In this document: piece by piece, positions 19,531 to 61,165 of the stretch
How the letters are laid out: every line of letters starts with the position of its first letter
How positions within the stretch are numbered: position 1 is the stretch's first letter
Notes under the pieces: model-generated
Told to the model about the DNA's origin: nothing
Databases searched by the model: none
The model's input: the letters and a program-made list of their open reading frames with translations, nothing else
Position numbers and translations under genes: made by a program
Source: Candidatus Latescibacterota bacterium
Lineage (GTDB): Bacteria; Latescibacterota; UBA2968; GCA-2709665
NCBI GenBank assembly: GCA_965198095.1
Contig: OZ240239.1
Span: forward strand, 118,641 to 182,640
DNA: 64,000 nucleotides
Reading direction: 5' to 3'

Positions 19531-19660
19531 AGCTTACGTTCGCCAGCAGGAGCTGGCTCCTACCTTATGAACGGCTTGTGAATATTACCTGATTCCAAAC
19601 GCCGGTAAATCCGGTAGGAGCCGCCTCCCGGCGGCGAACACTTCACCCCGATACTCTCAA
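19531..19660. repeat. REP-like hairpin repeat (GGCTCCTACC ... CCGGTAGGAGCC family), single copy
   Basis: ..GCCAGCAGGAGCTGGCTCCTACCTTATGAACGGCTTGTGAATATTACCTGATT..CCGGTAAATCCGGTAGGAGCCGCCTCCCGGCGGCGAACACTTCACC. Same family as the units around the RAYT gene. Confidence 0.6.
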
Positions 19661-21517: not shown

Positions 21518-21721
21518 TTCCTCCCAAGGTAAATTTCGCCGTCCGGAGACGGCTTTCGGTTGACAGAGACGGCCGCCGTGATCGGATTCGTCGCCGTCTG
21601 GAGACGGATCCTACCATATGAATAGACGTCTGAAACGGTTCAACAACGAACCCACGGTACTCCTGTTCTGATTCCCGGGTGCTCGCCTTCACGATCCACG
21701 AACAACGGTTTTTACGATCCC

Positions 21722-33399: not shown

Positions 33400-34250
33400 C
33401 CGCGGCTTCGCCAACAGAGTTGGCGATTGGATTGGCGCACCCTAAGTCGCCGTCTGTGGCTTCGCCAACAGAGTTGGCCATAGGATTGGCACATCTTAAA
33501 TCGCAATCTGTGGCTTCGCCAACAGAGTTGGCGATTGGATTCGTGCACCCTAAATCGCAATCTGTGGCTTCGCCAACAGAGTTGGCTCCTACCGGATTTG
33601 GGACGTTATGACATCGGTGAATCCAATAGGCCCAATAATCCGGTAGGAGCCGTCTCCCGACGGCGAACCATCTGATCGCAGTGTGGTGCCTCTGCTGAAC
33701 CTATGGGTGGCGATTGGATTCGTGCACCCTACGTCGCCGTCTGTGGCTTCGCCAACAGAGTTGGCTCCTACCGGATTCGGGACGTTTTGATATCGGTGAA
33801 TTCAATTCACCGGAAAATACGGTAGGAGCCGTCTCCCGACGGCGAACCATCTGATCGCGGTGTGGTGCCTCTGCTGAACCTATGGGTGGCGATTGGATTG
33901 GCGCACCCTAAGTCGCCGTCCATGGCTTCGCCAACAGAGTTGGCAATTGGATTGGCGCACCCTAAGTCGCCGTCCATGGCTTCGCCAACAGAGTTGGCTC
34001 CTACCGGATTCGGGACGTTTTGATATCGGTGAATTCAATTCACCGGAAAATACGGTAGGAGCCGTCTCCCGACGGCGAACCATCTGATCGCGGTGTGCGC
34101 CTCTGCTGAACCTATGGGTGGCCATAGGATTGGCGCACCCTAAATCGCAATCTGTGGCTTCGCCAACAGAGTTGGCCATGGGATTGGCGCACCCTAAATC
34201 GCAATCTGTGGCTTCGCCAACAGAGTTGGCTCCTACCGGATTTGTGGCGT
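33400..34250. repeat. mosaic BIME-like repeat array combining two repeat families
   Basis: Family 1 is a ~54-bp tandem unit: GTGGCTTCGCCAACAGAGTTGG followed by (C)GATTGGATTGGCGCACCCTAAGTCGCCGTCT-like sequence. Family 2 is the ~125-160-bp hairpin unit GGCTCCTACCGGATT..CGGTAGGAGCCGTCTCCCGACGGCGAAC, the same family as the RAYT-associated REPs. Confidence 0.7.
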
Positions 34251-40886: not shown

Positions 40887-41604
40887 CCATCCAGTAACGG
40901 ATCGGAAAGGCGGCGATCGTGACCCGCATCCCGGTCACCTCGTCGATATCTCCGCCCACGTTCTCGATCAGGCCGATGCCGTTCATCAGCATCTTGTTGT
41001 GGGCATACTCCTGAGAAGGGTGCTCCGGCGGGTCGAACTGTTTCGGAAAATCGTCCAACAGCTCCCGTCCCGTCACTTTCTTGTACTTGTCATACACCCA
41101 CGGCGTGCGGTCCGGACCCTTCGTGCACAAGAAGATATCGTTCGCCTGCGTGTCGTGGCCGACACATTTGACACCCTTCTCGACGAACCAGTCCGCGGCC
41201 TCTTTCCACATCCCCGGAGAGAACTGAAAGTATTTCGTGTTGTTTCCCCAGTACTGGTGCCAGCCCGTGTTGATGATGACGATGTCGTCCTTCTGGATCT
41301 CCGGCCTGGCGTGCTCGAGATCCTCGGCCGTGATCAGTTCCCAATCGTTCTTTGGAATGCTCACCACGACGCCTGTCCCATAGTATGTATCCAGCGGAAC
41401 CTCGTCCATGTCGCACCCGTTCTCGTTCACGTGAATCGGAGCGTCCACGTGGGTGCCCACGTGCATGGAGTGTTTGATCATCGTCGTCGTCTGGCCGTTA
41501 TGCTGGGGCATGGAGATCCGCTCGATGATGAGGTCGGGGCTGCCCGGCCAGACCGGCATGCCAAAACCGAACGGGTGCGACAGGTCAACCAGTCGTCTCG
41601 GCAT
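40840..41604 (-). CDS. cyclase-family metal-dependent hydrolase (kynurenine formamidase-like, PF04199)
   Basis: 254 aa. Signature HVGTHVDAPIH plus DLSHPFGFGMPVWPG. Confidence 0.75.
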   Translation of the reverse strand: MPRRLVDLSHPFGFGMPVWPGSPDLIIERISMPQHNGQTTTMIKHSMHVGTHVDAPIHVNENGCDMDEVPLDTYYGTGVVVSIPKNDWELITAEDLEHARPEIQKDDIVIINTGWHQYWGNNTKYFQFSPGMWKEAADWFVEKGVKCVGHDTQANDIFLCTKGPDRTPWVYDKYKKVTGRELLDDFPKQFDPPEHPSQEYAHNKMLMNGIGLIENVGGDIDEVTGMRVTIAAFPIRYWMGDGSLARVVAIVDEA

Positions 41605-41654
41605 CTTGATACGCCCTCCTTGTCCTGAAAGTCCGTCCGCCCATCGCGCTGAGA

Positions 41655-41805
41655 CAAGCCCGGCAAATCCGGTAGGAGCCTTACCTTCGCCAGCAGGAGC
41701 TGGCTCCTACCTTATGAACGGCTTGTGAGTATTACCTGATTGCAAGCCCGGTGAATCCGGTAGGAGCCGCCTCCCGGCGGCGATCCATTCACGCCGATAC
41801 TCGCC
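41655..41805. repeat. REP-like hairpin repeats (1.3 units) on the 3' side of the RAYT pseudogene
   Basis: CCGGCAAATCCGGTAGGAGCC then a full unit CTTACCTTCGCCAGCAGGAGCTGGCTCCTACCTTATGAACGGC..CCGGTGAATCCGGTAGGAGCCGCCTCCCGGCGGCG. Confidence 0.65.
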
Positions 41806-41815
41806 TTGCTTGATC

Positions 41816-42323
41816 TTACCAATCCGGGAAAAGACACGAGAACGGCCAATCTTCTGGGGTTGCAACATATCTTTTTCTCACCGGATTTTCATGGATGTAT
41901 CCGATTTTCATGGATGTATCCGAGATGTCGAGCAAACGCCTCTTTGTTACGAAGCTTATGATCATAGAACCCGCGCTGCCAGAACCTTCCCGTCCTGCAT
42001 TGTAGTCTGTTGATTCCTCTAGCTGTATGGCTTCCGAATGAAGCCATCACGCTGGAAAGATCCTGATCCTCTCCCAAGGCCACGATCAAATGCAAGTGAT
42101 CAGGCATCAGGACGTATCCTTCACATCTGAGACGCTCATTTTCATGAAGCCAGCGCAAACACCGAACGATGAGCTCCGGCACTTCAGATTCCTCTTTCGG
42201 ATTCATTGGGTCGCGAACCAGTGGACCTGTAGTATCGTCCACGCACTTTGTTATGGAGTAGATGGATCCGGGCAAGGAATTACGCCATTTCCTCAGAGCC
42301 GATTGATGGAACCCTCTTTCCAT
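41816..42323 (-). pseudogene. REP-associated tyrosine transposase (RAYT; IS200-like Y1 HuH transposase) disrupted by a 19-bp tandem duplication
   Basis: The current ORF 41889..42323 encodes ..GYVLMPDHLHLIV.. (HuH) and ..RFWQRGFYDHKLRN..HLGYIHENRIHP, then stops. Removing one copy of the duplicated 19-mer (41881-41919, CCGGATTTTCATGGATGTAT / CCGATTTTCATGGATGTAT) restores ..YIHENPVRKRYVATPEDWPFSCLFPDW* and a 162-aa product ending at 41816. Confidence 0.7.
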
Positions 42324-42350
42324 TTTTTTACACGTATCAACCGACGGCCG

Positions 42351-42975
42351 AGCTTACCTTCGCCAGCAGGAGCTGGCTCCTACCTGATGAACGGCCTGTG
42401 AGTATTGCCTGATTGCAAGCCCGGTGAATCCGGTAGGAGCCGCCTCCCGGCGGCGAACACTTCACCTCGATCCTCGCCTTACCTTCGCCAGCAGGAGCTG
42501 GCTCCTACCTTTTGAACGGCTTGTGAGTATTGCCTGATTGCAAGCCCGGTAAATCCGGTAAGAGCCGCCTCCCGGCGGCGAACACTTCACCTCGATCCTC
42601 GCCTTACCTTCGCCAGCAGGAGCTGGCTCCTACCTCATGAACGGCTTGTGAGTATTACCTGATTTTTCAAACCCGGTAAATCCGGTAGGAGCCGCCTCCC
42701 GGCGGCGAACACTTCACCTTGATCCTCGCCTTACCTTCGCCAGCAGGAGCTGGCTCCTACCTCATGAACAGCTTGTGAGTATTACCTGATTTCAAACCCG
42801 GTAAATCCGGTAAGAGCCGCCTCCCGGCGGCGAACACTTCACCTCGATCCTCGCCTTACCTTCGCCAGCAGGAGCTGGCTCCTACCTCATGAACAGCTTG
42901 TGAGTATTACCTGATTGCAAGCCCGGTAAATCCGGTAGGAGCCGCCTCCCGGCGGCGAACACTTCACTTCGCAGA
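42351..42975. repeat. tandem array of five ~126-bp REP-like hairpin units on the 5' side of the RAYT pseudogene
   Basis: Five near-identical tandem units CTTACCTTCGCCAGCAGGAGCTGGCTCCTACCT[CT]ATGAAC[AG]GCTTGTGAGTATT[AG]CCTGATT..CCCGGTAAATCCGGTA[GA]GAGCCGCCTCCCGGCGGCGAACACTTCACCTCGATCCTCGC. Each contains the GGCTCCTACC/GGTAGGAGCC inverted repeat. No unique spacers. Confidence 0.75.
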
Positions 42976-43186
42976 AAGCAAGTATTGGGTGTGCCGTTTT
43001 GTCGTCAAAAGCCGATCGGAGACTAAGTTGTTGAATTTCACGCACCTGAAGCGAGTCTCGTCGCGGGTGTGGATCGATCTGCAAAAACCGGTCTGGGAAG
43101 ATAGGTAGGTAGGGCTTGAACGCTAAAACGTTCTTGGAGGAAGGAGACAGGATCGGTCGGCTGGCGCGCCCACTCTTGCCTCAAGG

Positions 43187-44212
43187 TCAACTCGTGTCGA
43201 TCCGCTCCGCCATCTCCGACATCGTCTGCGCATCCACGGACCGACGGTGCAGGATCGTCTCGAGATTGCCCATATGATCCGAGTGTTCGGGAACCGCCTC
43301 CAGCGCTTCACGAACCTCTTCCCAGGTACATCCGATCTGCCGGGGCTTGTAGCGGGTGCCGCAGGCCTTGAGCATCTCCACGGCCTTCTCGAAGTGCGTC
43401 TCGCAGAGATGACAGGTGATCAGCGTCCCAAGGGCGACGATCTCGCCGTGCAGCGGTTGCTGACCGTGCACCCAGTAAAAGGCGGGGTCCATGGGATGAT
43501 CGATGCTGTGATTCACGTTCTGCTTCATCACCGGGAGGTCCCACCGCTCCCGGCTGATCTCCGCGCAGGTCCGAATGGCCGGGGGTCCGGGCCTTCCCTC
43601 GACGTCCAGATCGGAGGCGTAGCGTTCCACGCGCTCCGATATCCAGGTCTCTATCTCTTCCTGTGCGGCCGTATTCCAAGAATCGCCCGGCAGTCCCTGA
43701 TCCGTCCACCACTTCCAGGCGGCCGCTGCGGCCAGGAAGCAGACGCACTCGCCCATGCCGGCCGCGTTGAGGTAGGGCGGCGCGGCCCAGATCACGTCGG
43801 TGTCCAACAGCACACACTCGGGCACCAGCGTATCTATAATCGCGAGCTTGCCGTCCCGCCGAAGCGGATATGTCAGCTGAAAAATGGCACCGGTCGACAC
43901 GACGGTCGGGATCTGGATGAGCCTGGCCTTCTTCTTCAGGGCGACGTATTTGGCGGCGTCCAGGGCCCTCCCGCCTCCAATTCCGAGGACGTGGGACGTC
44001 TTCGGAAGTTTCTTCACGAGGTCGTTGGAATAGCCTTCCTCCTGGCTGGTCACATATGCCAGGCCCTTGGGCTCGCCCGGCAGCTTTTCCCGAACTGCCT
44101 CCCAGGCCGAGGGCGAGGTCAAAACGACATAACCCTTGAGATCCCGGCATCCGTCCTCGATCACGCGCGTTCCGTAATGGGTAACCCAATCTTTCAATGG
44201 TTTCGTGGCCAT
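43187..44212 (-). CDS. iron-containing alcohol dehydrogenase / dehydroquinate-synthase-like superfamily protein
   Basis: 341 aa. Glycine-rich NAD motif GIGGGRALDAAKYVA. His-rich C-terminal metal region. Confidence 0.55.
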   Translation of the reverse strand: MATKPLKDWVTHYGTRVIEDGCRDLKGYVVLTSPSAWEAVREKLPGEPKGLAYVTSQEEGYSNDLVKKLPKTSHVLGIGGGRALDAAKYVALKKKARLIQIPTVVSTGAIFQLTYPLRRDGKLAIIDTLVPECVLLDTDVIWAAPPYLNAAGMGECVCFLAAAAAWKWWTDQGLPGDSWNTAAQEEIETWISERVERYASDLDVEGRPGPPAIRTCAEISRERWDLPVMKQNVNHSIDHPMDPAFYWVHGQQPLHGEIVALGTLITCHLCETHFEKAVEMLKACGTRYKPRQIGCTWEEVREALEAVPEHSDHMGNLETILHRRSVDAQTMSEMAERIDTS

Positions 44213-44408: not shown

Positions 44409-46340
44409 CTACGAAGCACTCACCCACGTCAGAAAGGGTGAGGCGCCGCGATTTCCCCACGCATAGAAAGGGATCGCCGTCACCGGCGCGGCGGTCCCAC
44501 CCTCCCCGCGAAGGACAACGGTCTGGCCCAGGAGGCCTTCCTCCAGGTCGGTTTCGAACCCGGGCAGTTCCCCCACAGGCGCGTAGAGCCCCTCCCCTTG
44601 TCTTGAACGCGCCCCTGTCCCAACACAGATCTCCCACAGGTCGAGACCGGGATTGTCCGCCCCTTCGAAGCAGTAGACGAGGGGCCCCCGCATCAAGGCC
44701 AGTCTGCGTCGCAGGACCTTCACTCGGGGATCCGCCTGTACGCCGACGACCGGCATCGGCAGGTCCAGAATCACGCGGTCTCCCGGGCTCCACTCTCTGT
44801 GGATTCGGCAGTAGGATCCAGGTTCGACCCCACTGACAGCTGTACCGTTGACTTCAACCTTTGGGTTCGAACACCAACCGGGGATGCGCAGGTTCAGATC
44901 GAAGCTCGCGGGTTTCTGGGAAGAAACCTCGAGCTCTACGAGGCCCTCCCACGGATACTGCGTCTTTTGCGAAAGGGCGATCTCCGTACCATCCGGCAGG
45001 TGCCAATCTACGCGGCTGTTGTCGTAGAGGTGGACCCAGAAGCCACTTTCGGACGTGCTATAGATATAGCCGGGAACCGACGCGATCGTACAAAGCACGT
45101 TCGGGGGACAACAGCTGGGCGACAGAGACGCCCAGGTCGTTCTCGGAGGATGATCCCCGAGTGAAGCCAGGGGCACGAGGTAGGAGAAAGTGGTGTGGTC
45201 CAGCGAGACACCCGCCAGGATCCCGTTGTAGAGAATCCGCTCGAAAAGATCGGCATACACCGCCTCACCCGTCACGGCGAGCATCCGCCAGTTCCAGTAG
45301 GCGTTGCCGATCGTCGCGCAGGTCTCCATCCCGGTCGACCCGGTCCAGCCCCATACCCCCTGGGACAGGTCGAAGGCCTCTTCAACTGCCACTTCGGCTT
45401 CCCCGCGTTTGACCGCGATCGATCCAACAATATGCATCTTCCTCTTGGTGACGTCGTTCCAGATCGCGTCCAGCTTGTCCAGGTAGGCCTTATTTCCGGT
45501 TTCCGCGAAGGAGTCCGCGCCGCCGCACATCAGATAGGTCTGGCGAACGAGGTGTGCGGAACGACGGACGCCTACATTCGACCCGATCGCGACGCTCGGA
45601 CCGATTACGGGCGGCTGTCTGAGCAGAGGCGTCAGGAAATGCTCGGCGCCGCGCAGGTAGCGTTCATCGCCGGTCGAACGATACAACTCTACGAGCGCCA
45701 TCTCTATGGCGGGGTGCCCCGCGAACTCCTCGCCTCCGAATTTCGCGCAGACCCGGTCCGCAACGCCCATCGCGCATTCCAGGAATTTATCTTCACCGGT
45801 CGCGCGATGGTGGGCGATGGCCGTCTGGATCAGGTGGCCCGGAGTTGCGAGCCCATACGAGAGCTCGAAATTCTCGCCATAATAGATGTTGAAAAAATCT
45901 TCATTCTGATGTGCCGCGACGAAACCGGCCGCAAGGTCGTTGACCAGACCGCGGATCTCATCATCCTCACCCGACTGAAGCACGAACGCGCACGCTTCCA
46001 GCCACTTCGTCGCGTTCGCGCGCCATGTGTAGGACAGTCCGAGTTTGTTCTGGCCTCTATAGTTCTTGTCCAGAATCTCGAGGGCGGCCCCAATTTCCGG
46101 ACCGTCCGTAGACTGGGAGAATGTCCGGAACGGGCTGATCTGATCGTCCCTGTCGAGCCAGGAGAGGAAGGCCGGAATGCCCGCCCTGCGGCTGGCCTCC
46201 ATTCGCGGCCGCCAGAATCCCGCCTCCATCGTAACGGCCTGAATCGGGACCGGTCTTAGAATGGCGTGGGGGCTCTGAACGGTGGAAACGACGCCCGCCT
46301 CGTTCCAAGCCGGGAGGGTCTTACCTTCCTTGGTACTCAC
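44409..46340 (-). CDS. glycoside hydrolase family 127 (beta-L-arabinofuranosidase, DUF1680) protein
   Basis: 643 aa. N-terminal ..PIQAVTMEAGFWRPR.. typical of GH127. Conserved Cys cluster including SCCPPN (Cys-Cys of the HypBA1 Zn site). Confidence 0.75.
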   Translation of the reverse strand: MSTKEGKTLPAWNEAGVVSTVQSPHAILRPVPIQAVTMEAGFWRPRMEASRRAGIPAFLSWLDRDDQISPFRTFSQSTDGPEIGAALEILDKNYRGQNKLGLSYTWRANATKWLEACAFVLQSGEDDEIRGLVNDLAAGFVAAHQNEDFFNIYYGENFELSYGLATPGHLIQTAIAHHRATGEDKFLECAMGVADRVCAKFGGEEFAGHPAIEMALVELYRSTGDERYLRGAEHFLTPLLRQPPVIGPSVAIGSNVGVRRSAHLVRQTYLMCGGADSFAETGNKAYLDKLDAIWNDVTKRKMHIVGSIAVKRGEAEVAVEEAFDLSQGVWGWTGSTGMETCATIGNAYWNWRMLAVTGEAVYADLFERILYNGILAGVSLDHTTFSYLVPLASLGDHPPRTTWASLSPSCCPPNVLCTIASVPGYIYSTSESGFWVHLYDNSRVDWHLPDGTEIALSQKTQYPWEGLVELEVSSQKPASFDLNLRIPGWCSNPKVEVNGTAVSGVEPGSYCRIHREWSPGDRVILDLPMPVVGVQADPRVKVLRRRLALMRGPLVYCFEGADNPGLDLWEICVGTGARSRQGEGLYAPVGELPGFETDLEEGLLGQTVVLRGEGGTAAPVTAIPFYAWGNRGASPFLTWVSAS

Positions 46341-47240: not shown

Positions 47241-47265
47241 CTCTCACCTCCAAAAGATTCACGCT

Positions 47266-48330
47266 TTACACAATGCGCCACCGCGTGCCCATCAGGCAGG
47301 TCTTCTCGTCCAGTTGGTCCTTCTGGTAGTAGACTGTCCAGATCGATTCATCAGCCAACTGAACCGAGGCCGGGTAGCCCAGGTCTGCGTCGTGCGATGC
47401 GCAGACGAGCCCTTCGTTTCCGGCCTCCCAGCTCCTCCCCTCGTCCTTGCTGATACAGGCATACTCTCCGTACGGTGGCCTCCGCTTCCCGTAAACGACA
47501 AGCAGCCATCCGTTGTGCAATCGAATCAAGTGGGGAGGATAACCCCAGATCGAAGTCGGCGCCGCCACTGTCCAGGTCGCCCCGCCGTCCTCACTCAGCG
47601 ACTGCCGCAGAAAGTGCTGCGCTCGGTCTTGGGGTACGTAGCGAAACATCGCGACGAGGCGCCCGTCTTCCGTCTCGACGGCGTGGGGTTCGTGGTAGTG
47701 ATCGATCGATTCATCGGGAGGGATCTCGATCCGACCCAGAAGCACCCAGGAACGGCCGTCGTCCTCCGACTGCTCTACCAGGAGCGCCTCCTCGTCGTGA
47801 AAGATCGTCCTGCCCACGTAGAGGAGCCGTCCGTCACTCAATTCAATTGGACCGTGAGGCGCGCTCTCCTGCGTTCGAACCGGCGCCTCCCAGGTCTTTC
47901 CTCCGTCCCCCGACCGCCGCACCCAGTGCCCCAGCCAGTCACGCCTGTCTTCCTGTGTAAGCGAATCAATAGTCGCCTGCCACCGGTCTGCCGTCTCGTC
48001 GCCGTACTGCTCCCGGTATCTCAGCATCCGCGCTTCCGAAGCGACGCCGGTAAACCAGCTCACCACGATCGCGCCAGATCGAGTCACAATGATCCCCGCA
48101 TCCCGATCATCCACGGGCGTGTCGTTGATCGTCTCCGGGGTACTCCAGTTCGCGCCGCTGTCGGAGGACCGCACGAGCTGCGTCTTGCCGTAGGGACAGA
48201 CGTGTGAATCGCGGTCTCCTGAAAAGGCGACAAGCAATTCTTCTTGTGCCGTCTTCGCGATCGTCGGCCAACCGATGTAGCGACCGGGTTGTTTGCAGAT
48301 CACCTGCGTTGACAATACTTCGATTTCCAC
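47266..48330 (-). CDS. BNR/Asp-box repeat protein, exo-alpha-sialidase-like (GH33-like), no signal peptide
   Basis: 354 aa with five Asp-boxes (SSDSGANWS, SGDGGKTWE, SEDDGRSWV, SEDGGATWT, SKDEGRSWE). Confidence 0.7.
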   Translation of the reverse strand: MEIEVLSTQVICKQPGRYIGWPTIAKTAQEELLVAFSGDRDSHVCPYGKTQLVRSSDSGANWSTPETINDTPVDDRDAGIIVTRSGAIVVSWFTGVASEARMLRYREQYGDETADRWQATIDSLTQEDRRDWLGHWVRRSGDGGKTWEAPVRTQESAPHGPIELSDGRLLYVGRTIFHDEEALLVEQSEDDGRSWVLLGRIEIPPDESIDHYHEPHAVETEDGRLVAMFRYVPQDRAQHFLRQSLSEDGGATWTVAAPTSIWGYPPHLIRLHNGWLLVVYGKRRPPYGEYACISKDEGRSWEAGNEGLVCASHDADLGYPASVQLADESIWTVYYQKDQLDEKTCLMGTRWRIV

Positions 48331-61051: not shown

Positions 61052-61084
61052 ACGACTCTAATTTTCTTATCACCAGAGTAACAA

Positions 61085-61165
61085 TCGCCGCCGGGAGGCG
61101 GCTCCTACCGGATCAATGAGTGCGATGTATCTGGTAGGAGCCAACTCCCGTTGGCGACGAAATGA
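61085..61165. repeat. REP-like hairpin (short member of the GGCTCCTACC family)
   Basis: CGCCGCCGGGAGGCGGCTCCTACCGGATCAATGAGTGCGATGTATCTGGTAGGAGCCAACTCCCGTTGGCGACG. Confidence 0.55.

Follow-up and report, generated by a model that had tools for sequence, protein, structure and literature searches.

REP-associated tyrosine transposases (RAYTs) are monomeric HUH/Y1 single-strand DNA nucleases. By analogy, they are thought to maintain the population of REP and REPIN sequences in the genome that carries them. A gene of this family lies in the 64-kb stretch of Latescibacterota DNA that was analysed here (the window), where it carries a 19-bp tandem duplication that shifts its reading frame. To judge from its sequence, this copy is either a pseudogene of the RAYT family or an intact member with an assembly error. 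Which of the two is it, and could the shortened product still work? The reading put forward here is that of a real and very recent RAYT pseudogene, specific to the window assembly, and we regard it as probable.

A duplication that breaks the reading frame

Tandem Repeats Finder (TRF) detected an exact tandem repeat of period 19 at 41884-41923 of the window (2.1 copies, 100% matches, 0 indels). A repeat search resolved it into two 19-bp copies of GATTTTCATGGATGTATCC, 100% identical, at 41884-41902 and 41903-41921, and a script confirmed their exact tandem identity in three registers. The initial annotation had reported a direct tandem repeat at 41881-41919. The duplication itself holds, but the copies as they were written there, one of 20 nt and one of 19 nt, do not, as their register spans the boundary and they look non-identical. 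In 64 kb of random letters, the expected number of exact 19-mer tandem repeats is about 2e-7 (4^-19 x 64000). Across the duplication the minus strand reads ...CGACATC TC GGATACATCCATGAAAA TC GGATACATCCATGAAAA TC CGGTGAG..., with the 19-bp unit flanked by a 2-nt TC..TC microhomology. Copy 1 (41884-41902, plus-strand GATTTTCATGGATGTATCC in both TRF and the repeat search) is a 19-nt gap in all aligned relatives. Copy 2 (41903-41921, coding-strand unit GGATACATCCATGAAAATC) encodes G135-Y136-I137-H138-E139-N140 and the first base of the P141 codon. Deletion of either copy regains the ancestral sequence.

As it stands in the assembly, the frameshifted RAYT (TnpAREP) ORF occupies 41889-42323 on the minus strand, with its ATG at 42323. 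The window copy thus lacks an intact RAYT ORF: the +19 frameshift leads to a premature TGA at 41889-41891 and a product of 144 aa. The translation ends in ..GYIHENRIHP*, just as the initial annotation had read it, and RIHP are aberrant residues that follow N140. The 144-aa product retains the HuH motif (H76-L77-H78, 42090-42098), Y136 (41916-41918) and N140, and the frame is lost from P141 on. Removing one 19-bp copy in silico yields a 489-nt, 162-aa ORF that ends in ..YIHENPVRKRYVATPEDWPFSCLFPDW* with a TAA at 41816-41818. The length and stop position proposed earlier for the repaired gene were thereby reproduced, and four conspecific contigs encode the repaired protein at 100%. In the window, the native C-terminus survives as an out-of-frame remnant, ..PVRKRYVATPEDWPFSCLFPDW*, at 41816-41888 on the minus strand, still closed by the native TAA.

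Family, fold and active site

The repaired protein scores 115.1 bits against NCBIfam NF047646 (REP-associated tyrosine transposase, equivalog; cut-off 80 bits) and covers profile positions 4-146 of 146. The 144-aa form scores 87.1 bits and covers 4-131 of 146, so that the repair is worth 28 bits and the repaired C-terminus fits the family to its end, as had been predicted. Pfam PF01797, suggested at the outset as the profile against which to check that C-terminus, cannot serve the purpose: its match stops at residue 139 and it scores alike with and without the repair (32.7 bits repaired and 33.2 bits truncated, cut-off 23 bits). The closest solved relative by sequence is E. coli TnpAREP (4ER8, E 1.7e-11), in an alignment that extends through ..YIHENPVRKRYVATPEDWPFSCLF. 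For the repaired protein, AlphaFold gave a model (pLDDT 87.3, pTM 0.82) whose top PDB match by fold is again TnpAREP (4er8_A, E 1.1e-9, TM 0.65), with IS200/IS605 TnpA structures forming a second tier. The NF047646 score, the top match to 4ER8 by both sequence and fold, and the flanking REPs described below bear out the first assignment of the gene as a RAYT.

According to Messing et al. (2012, PMC3479197), the HUH motif of E. coli TnpAREP is H59-M60-H61, its catalytic tyrosine is Y115, and N119 and H123 lie on helix alphaD. In the alignment to 4ER8, H59, H61, Y115 and N119 correspond to H76, H78, Y136 and N140, and H123 corresponds to K144. The HuH motif noticed in the initial annotation is therefore present, as H76-L77-H78, and together with Y136 and N140-P141 it is invariant in an alignment of 26 homologues. 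Because it aligns with Y115 in the DYIYINPV of E. coli TnpAREP, Y136 of GYIHENPV is taken as the catalytic tyrosine. It lies inside the duplicated segment and not in RFWQRGFYDH; the earlier placement of the catalytic-Tyr region in RFWQRGFYDHKLRN was mistaken.

The same study describes how E. coli TnpAREP binds the REP hairpin through its 5' GTAG head and cuts and rejoins single-stranded DNA by way of a 5'-phosphotyrosine intermediate (PMC3479197). By analogy, we infer REP-specific cleavage and rejoining of single-stranded DNA by the intact 162-aa enzyme. The two systems share the HUH motif, a tyrosine on helix alphaD in the context Y-x-x-x-N-P-V, a DWPFS segment, and flanking 5'-GTAG REP hairpins in alternating orientation, as in BIMEs or the 'REPtron' (PMC3479197). 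The differences are several. Identity is only about 23-30%, the host belongs to the Latescibacterota and not to the gammaproteobacteria, H123 is replaced by K144, and the window copy is frameshifted. The REPs of the window also have 2 nt between GTAG and the 6-bp stem, and their spacers measure 47 nt, unlike those of the E. coli system. In addition, the Latescibacterota protein ends about 3 residues past DWPFS, without the autoinhibitory tail of about 25 aa that carries E161 in the E. coli protein (PMC3479197).

The gene shares with the TnpA proteins of IS200/IS605 elements (Y1; IS608 2VJV, ISDra2 2XM3) the HUH/Y1 fold and chemistry and a PF01797 score above the cut-off. It differs from them in scoring only 20.9 bits against the IS200 equivalog NF033573 (cut-off 55 bits), in occurring as a single copy in the window, and in its RAYT-specific NPV..DWPFS C-terminus. 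A multi-copy IS200/IS605 element was considered as well and set aside, there being one copy within the 64-kb window.

REP and REPIN sequences around the gene

Both sides of the gene carry REPINs. Upstream lies a 619-bp array (42353-42971) of 4.9 tandem 125-bp units with 95% matches (TRF). Every unit consists of two REPs in inverted orientation, GGTAGGAGCC-AGCTCCTGCT-GGCGAA and GGTAGGAGCC-GCCTCCCGGC-GGCGAA, whose GTAG heads point toward each other with 47 nt between them. Downstream is a single REPIN (41686-41784), made of one REP on the minus strand (41686-41711) and one on the plus strand (41759-41784), and abutting it is a truncated REP head, ATCCGGTAGGAGCC, on the plus strand at 41667-41680. 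The 26-nt REP consensus is GGTAGGAGCC-NN-CTCC-N-G-NN-GGCGAA. In its strict form the motif has 20 matches in the 64-kb window, against 0 in 100 shuffles, and beyond the RAYT locus it occurs at 19.5, 21.6, 33.6-34.2 and 61.1 kb (four or five other loci). Among all 94 loci fetched, it is confined to the 13 that have close orthologues of this RAYT.

Changes in the stems are compensatory (GCCGCC/GGCGGC, GCCAGC/GCTGGC, GCCGTC/GACGGC and GCCAAC/GTTGGC), and every variant folds alike, with 6 bp in the stem, 4 nt in the loop and GTAG in a free 5' tail. The whole 125-bp REPIN unit folds as a long hairpin (z ~ -3). An Rfam search of 41000-43600 at E<=1 gave no match, and the REPs therefore fall outside any curated RNA family. 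A promoter and terminator scan stayed at background level. The anatomy of the locus is that of a RAYT with its own REP/REPIN family.

Elsewhere in the window, the GTAG-headed REP family forms further clusters at 33404-34242, 19539-19638, 21590-21615 and 61084-61158. The largest of these (33404-34242) is a composite tandem array with 179- and 233-bp units and 54-bp subrepeats, and its stems are GCCGTC/GACGGC and GCCAAC/GTTGGC.

REPIN-RAYT systems of a similar arrangement are described for Pseudomonas fluorescens (Bertels & Rainey 2011, PMC3116915; Bertels et al. 2017, PMC5581495). As in them, the RAYT appears to be inherited vertically, here with one copy in the window, and has the same neighbouring genes in related species, and the inverted REP doublets on both of its sides are over-represented elsewhere in the genome. 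Two features set it apart, namely the longer REPIN spacer (47 nt) and the amplification of flanking REPINs to a tandem array of 3 to 5 units. RAYTs with flanking REPINs are known from many bacterial classes (PMC3116915; PMC5581495).

The locus in other strains of the species

An exact look-up of the neighbouring cyclase protein retrieved nine conspecific loci, two of which (L092 and L094) stop short of the RAYT locus. Because the neighbouring genes of these loci are mostly 98.8-100% identical to those of the window, with the Fe-ADH gene as low as 97.7%, the contigs can be taken to represent distinct strains. The initial annotation had proposed a comparison with other RAYT loci of the same genome; the 64-kb window holds no other, and the comparison of alleles came instead from these strains.

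Four contigs from two samples (L086, L089, L090 and L091) encode a RAYT that is 100% identical by tblastn to the repaired protein over residues 1-162. At the DNA level they show 0 mismatches to the window over 531 aligned nt, and the sole difference is the absence of 19 nt. The RAYT of L088 is interrupted: behind nt 305 sits a 1622-bp insertion sequence (L088:1795-3416) with a DDE_3 (IS630-like) transposase gene, inverted repeats of about 28 bp at its ends and GCTAG on either side; this RAYT copy carries 9 substitutions, against none in the four intact alleles. L087 and L093 have neither RAYT nor array and keep a single REPIN, whose flanks match the outermost units of the window. This looks like a deletion by recombination between flanking REPINs, the downstream REPIN and the first upstream unit. 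The array itself has 3 to 5 units of 125 bp among the strains.

At the site of the duplication, then, the only state found outside the window is the one-copy state, in 4 conspecific contigs, 1 sister-species locus and 3 TARA contigs. The duplication is present in the window assembly only, and in 0 of the 8 conspecific contigs that cover the locus. A junction pattern with an N{0,19} gap returned 0 matches, for either allele, in the genome and metagenome contig collections. The best relative found by a search for related loci in JGI metagenomes was 43% identical and uninformative on the allele. An exact look-up in the protein collection returned no 144-aa RAYT, no 162-aa RAYT and no Fe-ADH of the window.

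Several further observations concern these contigs. The single-REPIN remnants of the two deleted alleles lie between the Fe-ADH and cyclase genes, at L087:3800-3935 and L093:970-1105. The intact 162-aa RAYT ORFs (about 3302-3790 in L086, L089 and L090; 3265-3753 in L091) are absent from the called genes of their contigs, which may be due to their atypical composition. With the intact RAYT both uncalled and absent from the protein collection, protein-based searches therefore miss the allele. In all four intact strains the REP just downstream of the RAYT has a 1-nt deletion in its stem (GGTAGGAGCCGCCTCCCGGGGCGA; L086, L089 and L090:3823-3846, L091:3786-3809), whereas the stem of the window REP at 41759-41784 is full. 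The GH127 (beta-L-arabinofuranosidase-like) gene at 44409-46340 is 85-98.6% identical among conspecifics, while the other genes are mostly 98.8-100% identical; recombination with a divergent lineage may lie behind this, or else diversifying change.

Orthologues and selection on the lost C-terminus

The closest database proteins, P0001 and P0002 (80% and 77% identical), are both 162 aa long and both end in CLFPDW, as do the 162-aa orthologues on TARA contigs. The intact orthologue P0001 comes from a sister species, represented by a Candidatus Latescibacterota MAG, and is encoded on its chromosome OZ252100.1 (5.66 Mb). There, as in the window, the RAYT gene sits between the Fe-ADH and cyclase genes, and the flanking genes share 85-87% DNA identity. 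One RAYT locus was returned from this 5.66-Mb genome; the 64-kb window likewise has one copy, and no second RAYT locus was found in it. Aligned at the DNA level, the sister species and a TARA contig show a clean 19-nt gap against the window.

Against its orthologues, the repaired gene has a dN/dS of 0.15. The ratio is 0.09-0.12 over codons 141-162, the 22 codons past the frameshift, so the C-terminus was under purifying selection for essentially the whole divergence. Relaxed selection before the duplication was accordingly rejected, with a dN/dS of 0.15 that is not higher in the downstream codons.

Two features of the region stand out beside these results. The RAYT (41816-42323) has 48.8% GC and a GC3 of 0.51, against 61.2% GC in the window and a GC3 of 0.78-0.82 in the flanking genes, an atypical composition for an apparently vertically inherited gene that occupies the same position in the sister species. 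Further along, a GDSL-lipase gene of 349 aa separates the HpcH/HpaI aldolase gene from the BNR-repeat gene in the sister species (L005:458-1552). The lipase gene is without counterpart in the window, where its flanks lie 25 nt apart (about 47251-47276).

A real mutation or an assembly error

Could the extra copy exist only in the assembly? On this account the 19-mer stands only once in the organism's DNA, the 162-aa RAYT is intact, and the second copy arose from a read-overlap join, from polishing or from a rare subpopulation variant. Small tandem duplications are known to arise where short overlaps at joins are left unmerged, and a duplication seen in one assembly only, next to four conspecific contigs that are otherwise identical, is what such an error would leave. 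Nor do the perfect copies and the 0 differences elsewhere in the gene give any independent sign of age, since zero substitutions are predicted equally by an artefact and by a very recent mutation. The surrounding sequence, however, argues for a sound assembly. The flanking coding sequence, about 7 kb in all, aligns to the conspecific contigs with no indels, the lengths of 7 of 8 neighbouring genes differ by at most one residue from those in the sister species, and the adjacent array of 95%-identical 125-bp units was resolved over its 619 bp, which suggests long, accurate reads. The site also looks like that of a genuine event: it holds the only perfect short tandem duplication in the 64 kb, and its TC..TC microhomology is typical of real slippage. 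Lastly, RAYT loss alleles are common in the species, and a real mutation is the more plausible because other conspecific contigs have lost the gene independently (one by an IS, two by deletion). An artefact of assembly or consensus is thus an unlikely explanation, if one to be reckoned with.

For the real and very recent loss that we favour, the proposed course of events is simple. The 19-bp segment between the TC..TC microhomologies would have been duplicated in tandem, most likely by replication slippage (or else by microhomology-mediated duplication). The footprint of an excised element, or a target-site duplication, was considered and rejected, as 19 bp is an unusual length for a target-site duplication and a 2-nt microhomology is typical of slippage. 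We infer both that slippage was the cause and that the organism's DNA, not the assembly alone, carries the duplication. The event appears to be extremely recent, because the gene is otherwise nucleotide-identical to the intact allele in four strains.

Probable loss of activity

What would the frameshift do to the protein? The frame shifts after N140 and runs into a stop four codons later, giving the product of 144 aa. This product lacks the last turn of helix alphaD (predicted at 127-143) together with the conserved C-terminal 22 residues PVRK..PEDWPFS.., and with them a terminal beta-strand that the AlphaFold model predicts at 156-158. The gene is most likely non-functional and its truncated product inactive, to judge from the lost segment, which is worth 28 profile bits, is selectively constrained and includes the conserved PEDWPFS block. 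As a counterpoint, the HuH motif, Y136 and N140 are all still present in the shortened chain. For E. coli TnpAREP, the structural study reports that removal of the autoinhibitory tail (delta152) raises cleavage (PMC3479197). This hyperactivity is no precedent here, because delta152 removes a different, more distal tail that the Latescibacterota protein natively lacks.

The retained residues do raise the question of an enzyme that stays active despite the frameshift, whether because the 144-aa product works on its own, because ribosomes shift to +1 near CCA-UGA-A, or because a 49-aa ORF complements the truncated chain. The +1 frame is indeed open, and an ATG-started ORF of 49 aa (41816-41965) carries a second GYIHENPV..DWPFS with the full native C-terminus. 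IS200/IS605 relatives form active sites in trans from two chains; TnpAREP, however, is a monomer, which counts against complementation in trans. The 144-aa product would have to do without 22 residues that are under purifying selection (dN/dS 0.09-0.12) and worth 28 bits. By inspection, the sequence has neither a slippery nor a stimulatory frameshift signal, no Shine-Dalgarno precedes the 49-aa ORF, and a +1 shift at the stop would add six residues right after the catalytic helix motif. Programmed frameshifting was rejected for want of such a signal and for this 6-residue insertion beside the catalytic motif. Continued activity by any of these routes is scarcely credible.

A switch or a plain loss

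A tandem duplication is unstable, and if one copy is lost precisely the exact wild-type allele returns. Could the duplication then be real and reversible, an OFF state that reverts frequently by copy loss, so that slippage toggles the RAYT in the population? The intact allele does coexist within the species. In Neisseria, RAYT frameshifts are recurrent and occasionally revert, and an adaptive gain and loss has been proposed (bioRxiv 10.1101/2021.07.10.451892). The Latescibacterota duplication, by contrast, is a single occurrence, and relatives lack any pre-existing repeat tract at this position, which is therefore no dedicated contingency tract. What a phase-variable locus would show as a repeat is unique sequence in 4 conspecific, 1 sister-species and 3 TARA loci. 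Neither of the other loss alleles, one an IS insertion and the other a deletion, is reversible, and this speaks for plain dispensability. A slippage switch is on these grounds very improbable. A related proposal, of a rapidly reverting OFF state that together with the IS-disrupted and deleted alleles marks ongoing conflict between host and REPINs, is improbable too. If it were true, RAYTs would be repeatedly silenced, here reversibly, in natural Latescibacterota populations.

A simple and very recent loss of the gene has known parallels. Replication-slippage frameshifts with occasional reversion are described for the RAYTs of N. gonorrhoeae and N. meningitidis (Bertels & Rainey, bioRxiv 10.1101/2021.07.10.451892), and complete RAYT loss for some strains of E. 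coli and Pseudomonas (same source). The window copy resembles the Neisseria RAYTs in its slippage-type frameshift and premature stop, in the intact alleles of its relatives, and in a loss that is recurrent and tolerated. In Neisseria, however, the frameshifts fall within short homopolymer tracts, entire clades are fixed for them and REPIN decay is visible, whereas the window has a 19-bp duplication at a non-repetitive site, in one assembly, that is too recent for decay. Without the RAYT, the REPINs would no longer be propagated and slow decay would be expected, REPIN decay after RAYT loss having been described (Bertels & Rainey, bioRxiv 10.1101/2021.07.10.451892). Counting the duplication, the IS insertion and the deletion between REPINs, the species appears to have lost its RAYT in at least three independent ways, and such repeated loss fits a dispensable gene.

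Implications

For annotation, the locus is best recorded as a RAYT pseudogene, or a suspected frameshift with a known 162-aa repair, and not as a 144-aa protein, with the catalytic tyrosine at Y136. The event is of a known kind and no new kind of system is involved; what is unusual is the clarity of its population context in a little-studied phylum. If the duplication is real, as seems probable, it offers a clean and datable snapshot of RAYT loss: no substitution has followed the event, sister strains still carry the intact allele, and two more independent loss alleles occur at the locus. It would extend to the uncultured phylum Latescibacterota a picture of REPIN-RAYT systems that comes mainly from Proteobacteria. 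The natural series of intact, frameshifted, IS-disrupted and deleted alleles would be well suited to measuring how REPINs decay once their RAYT is lost.
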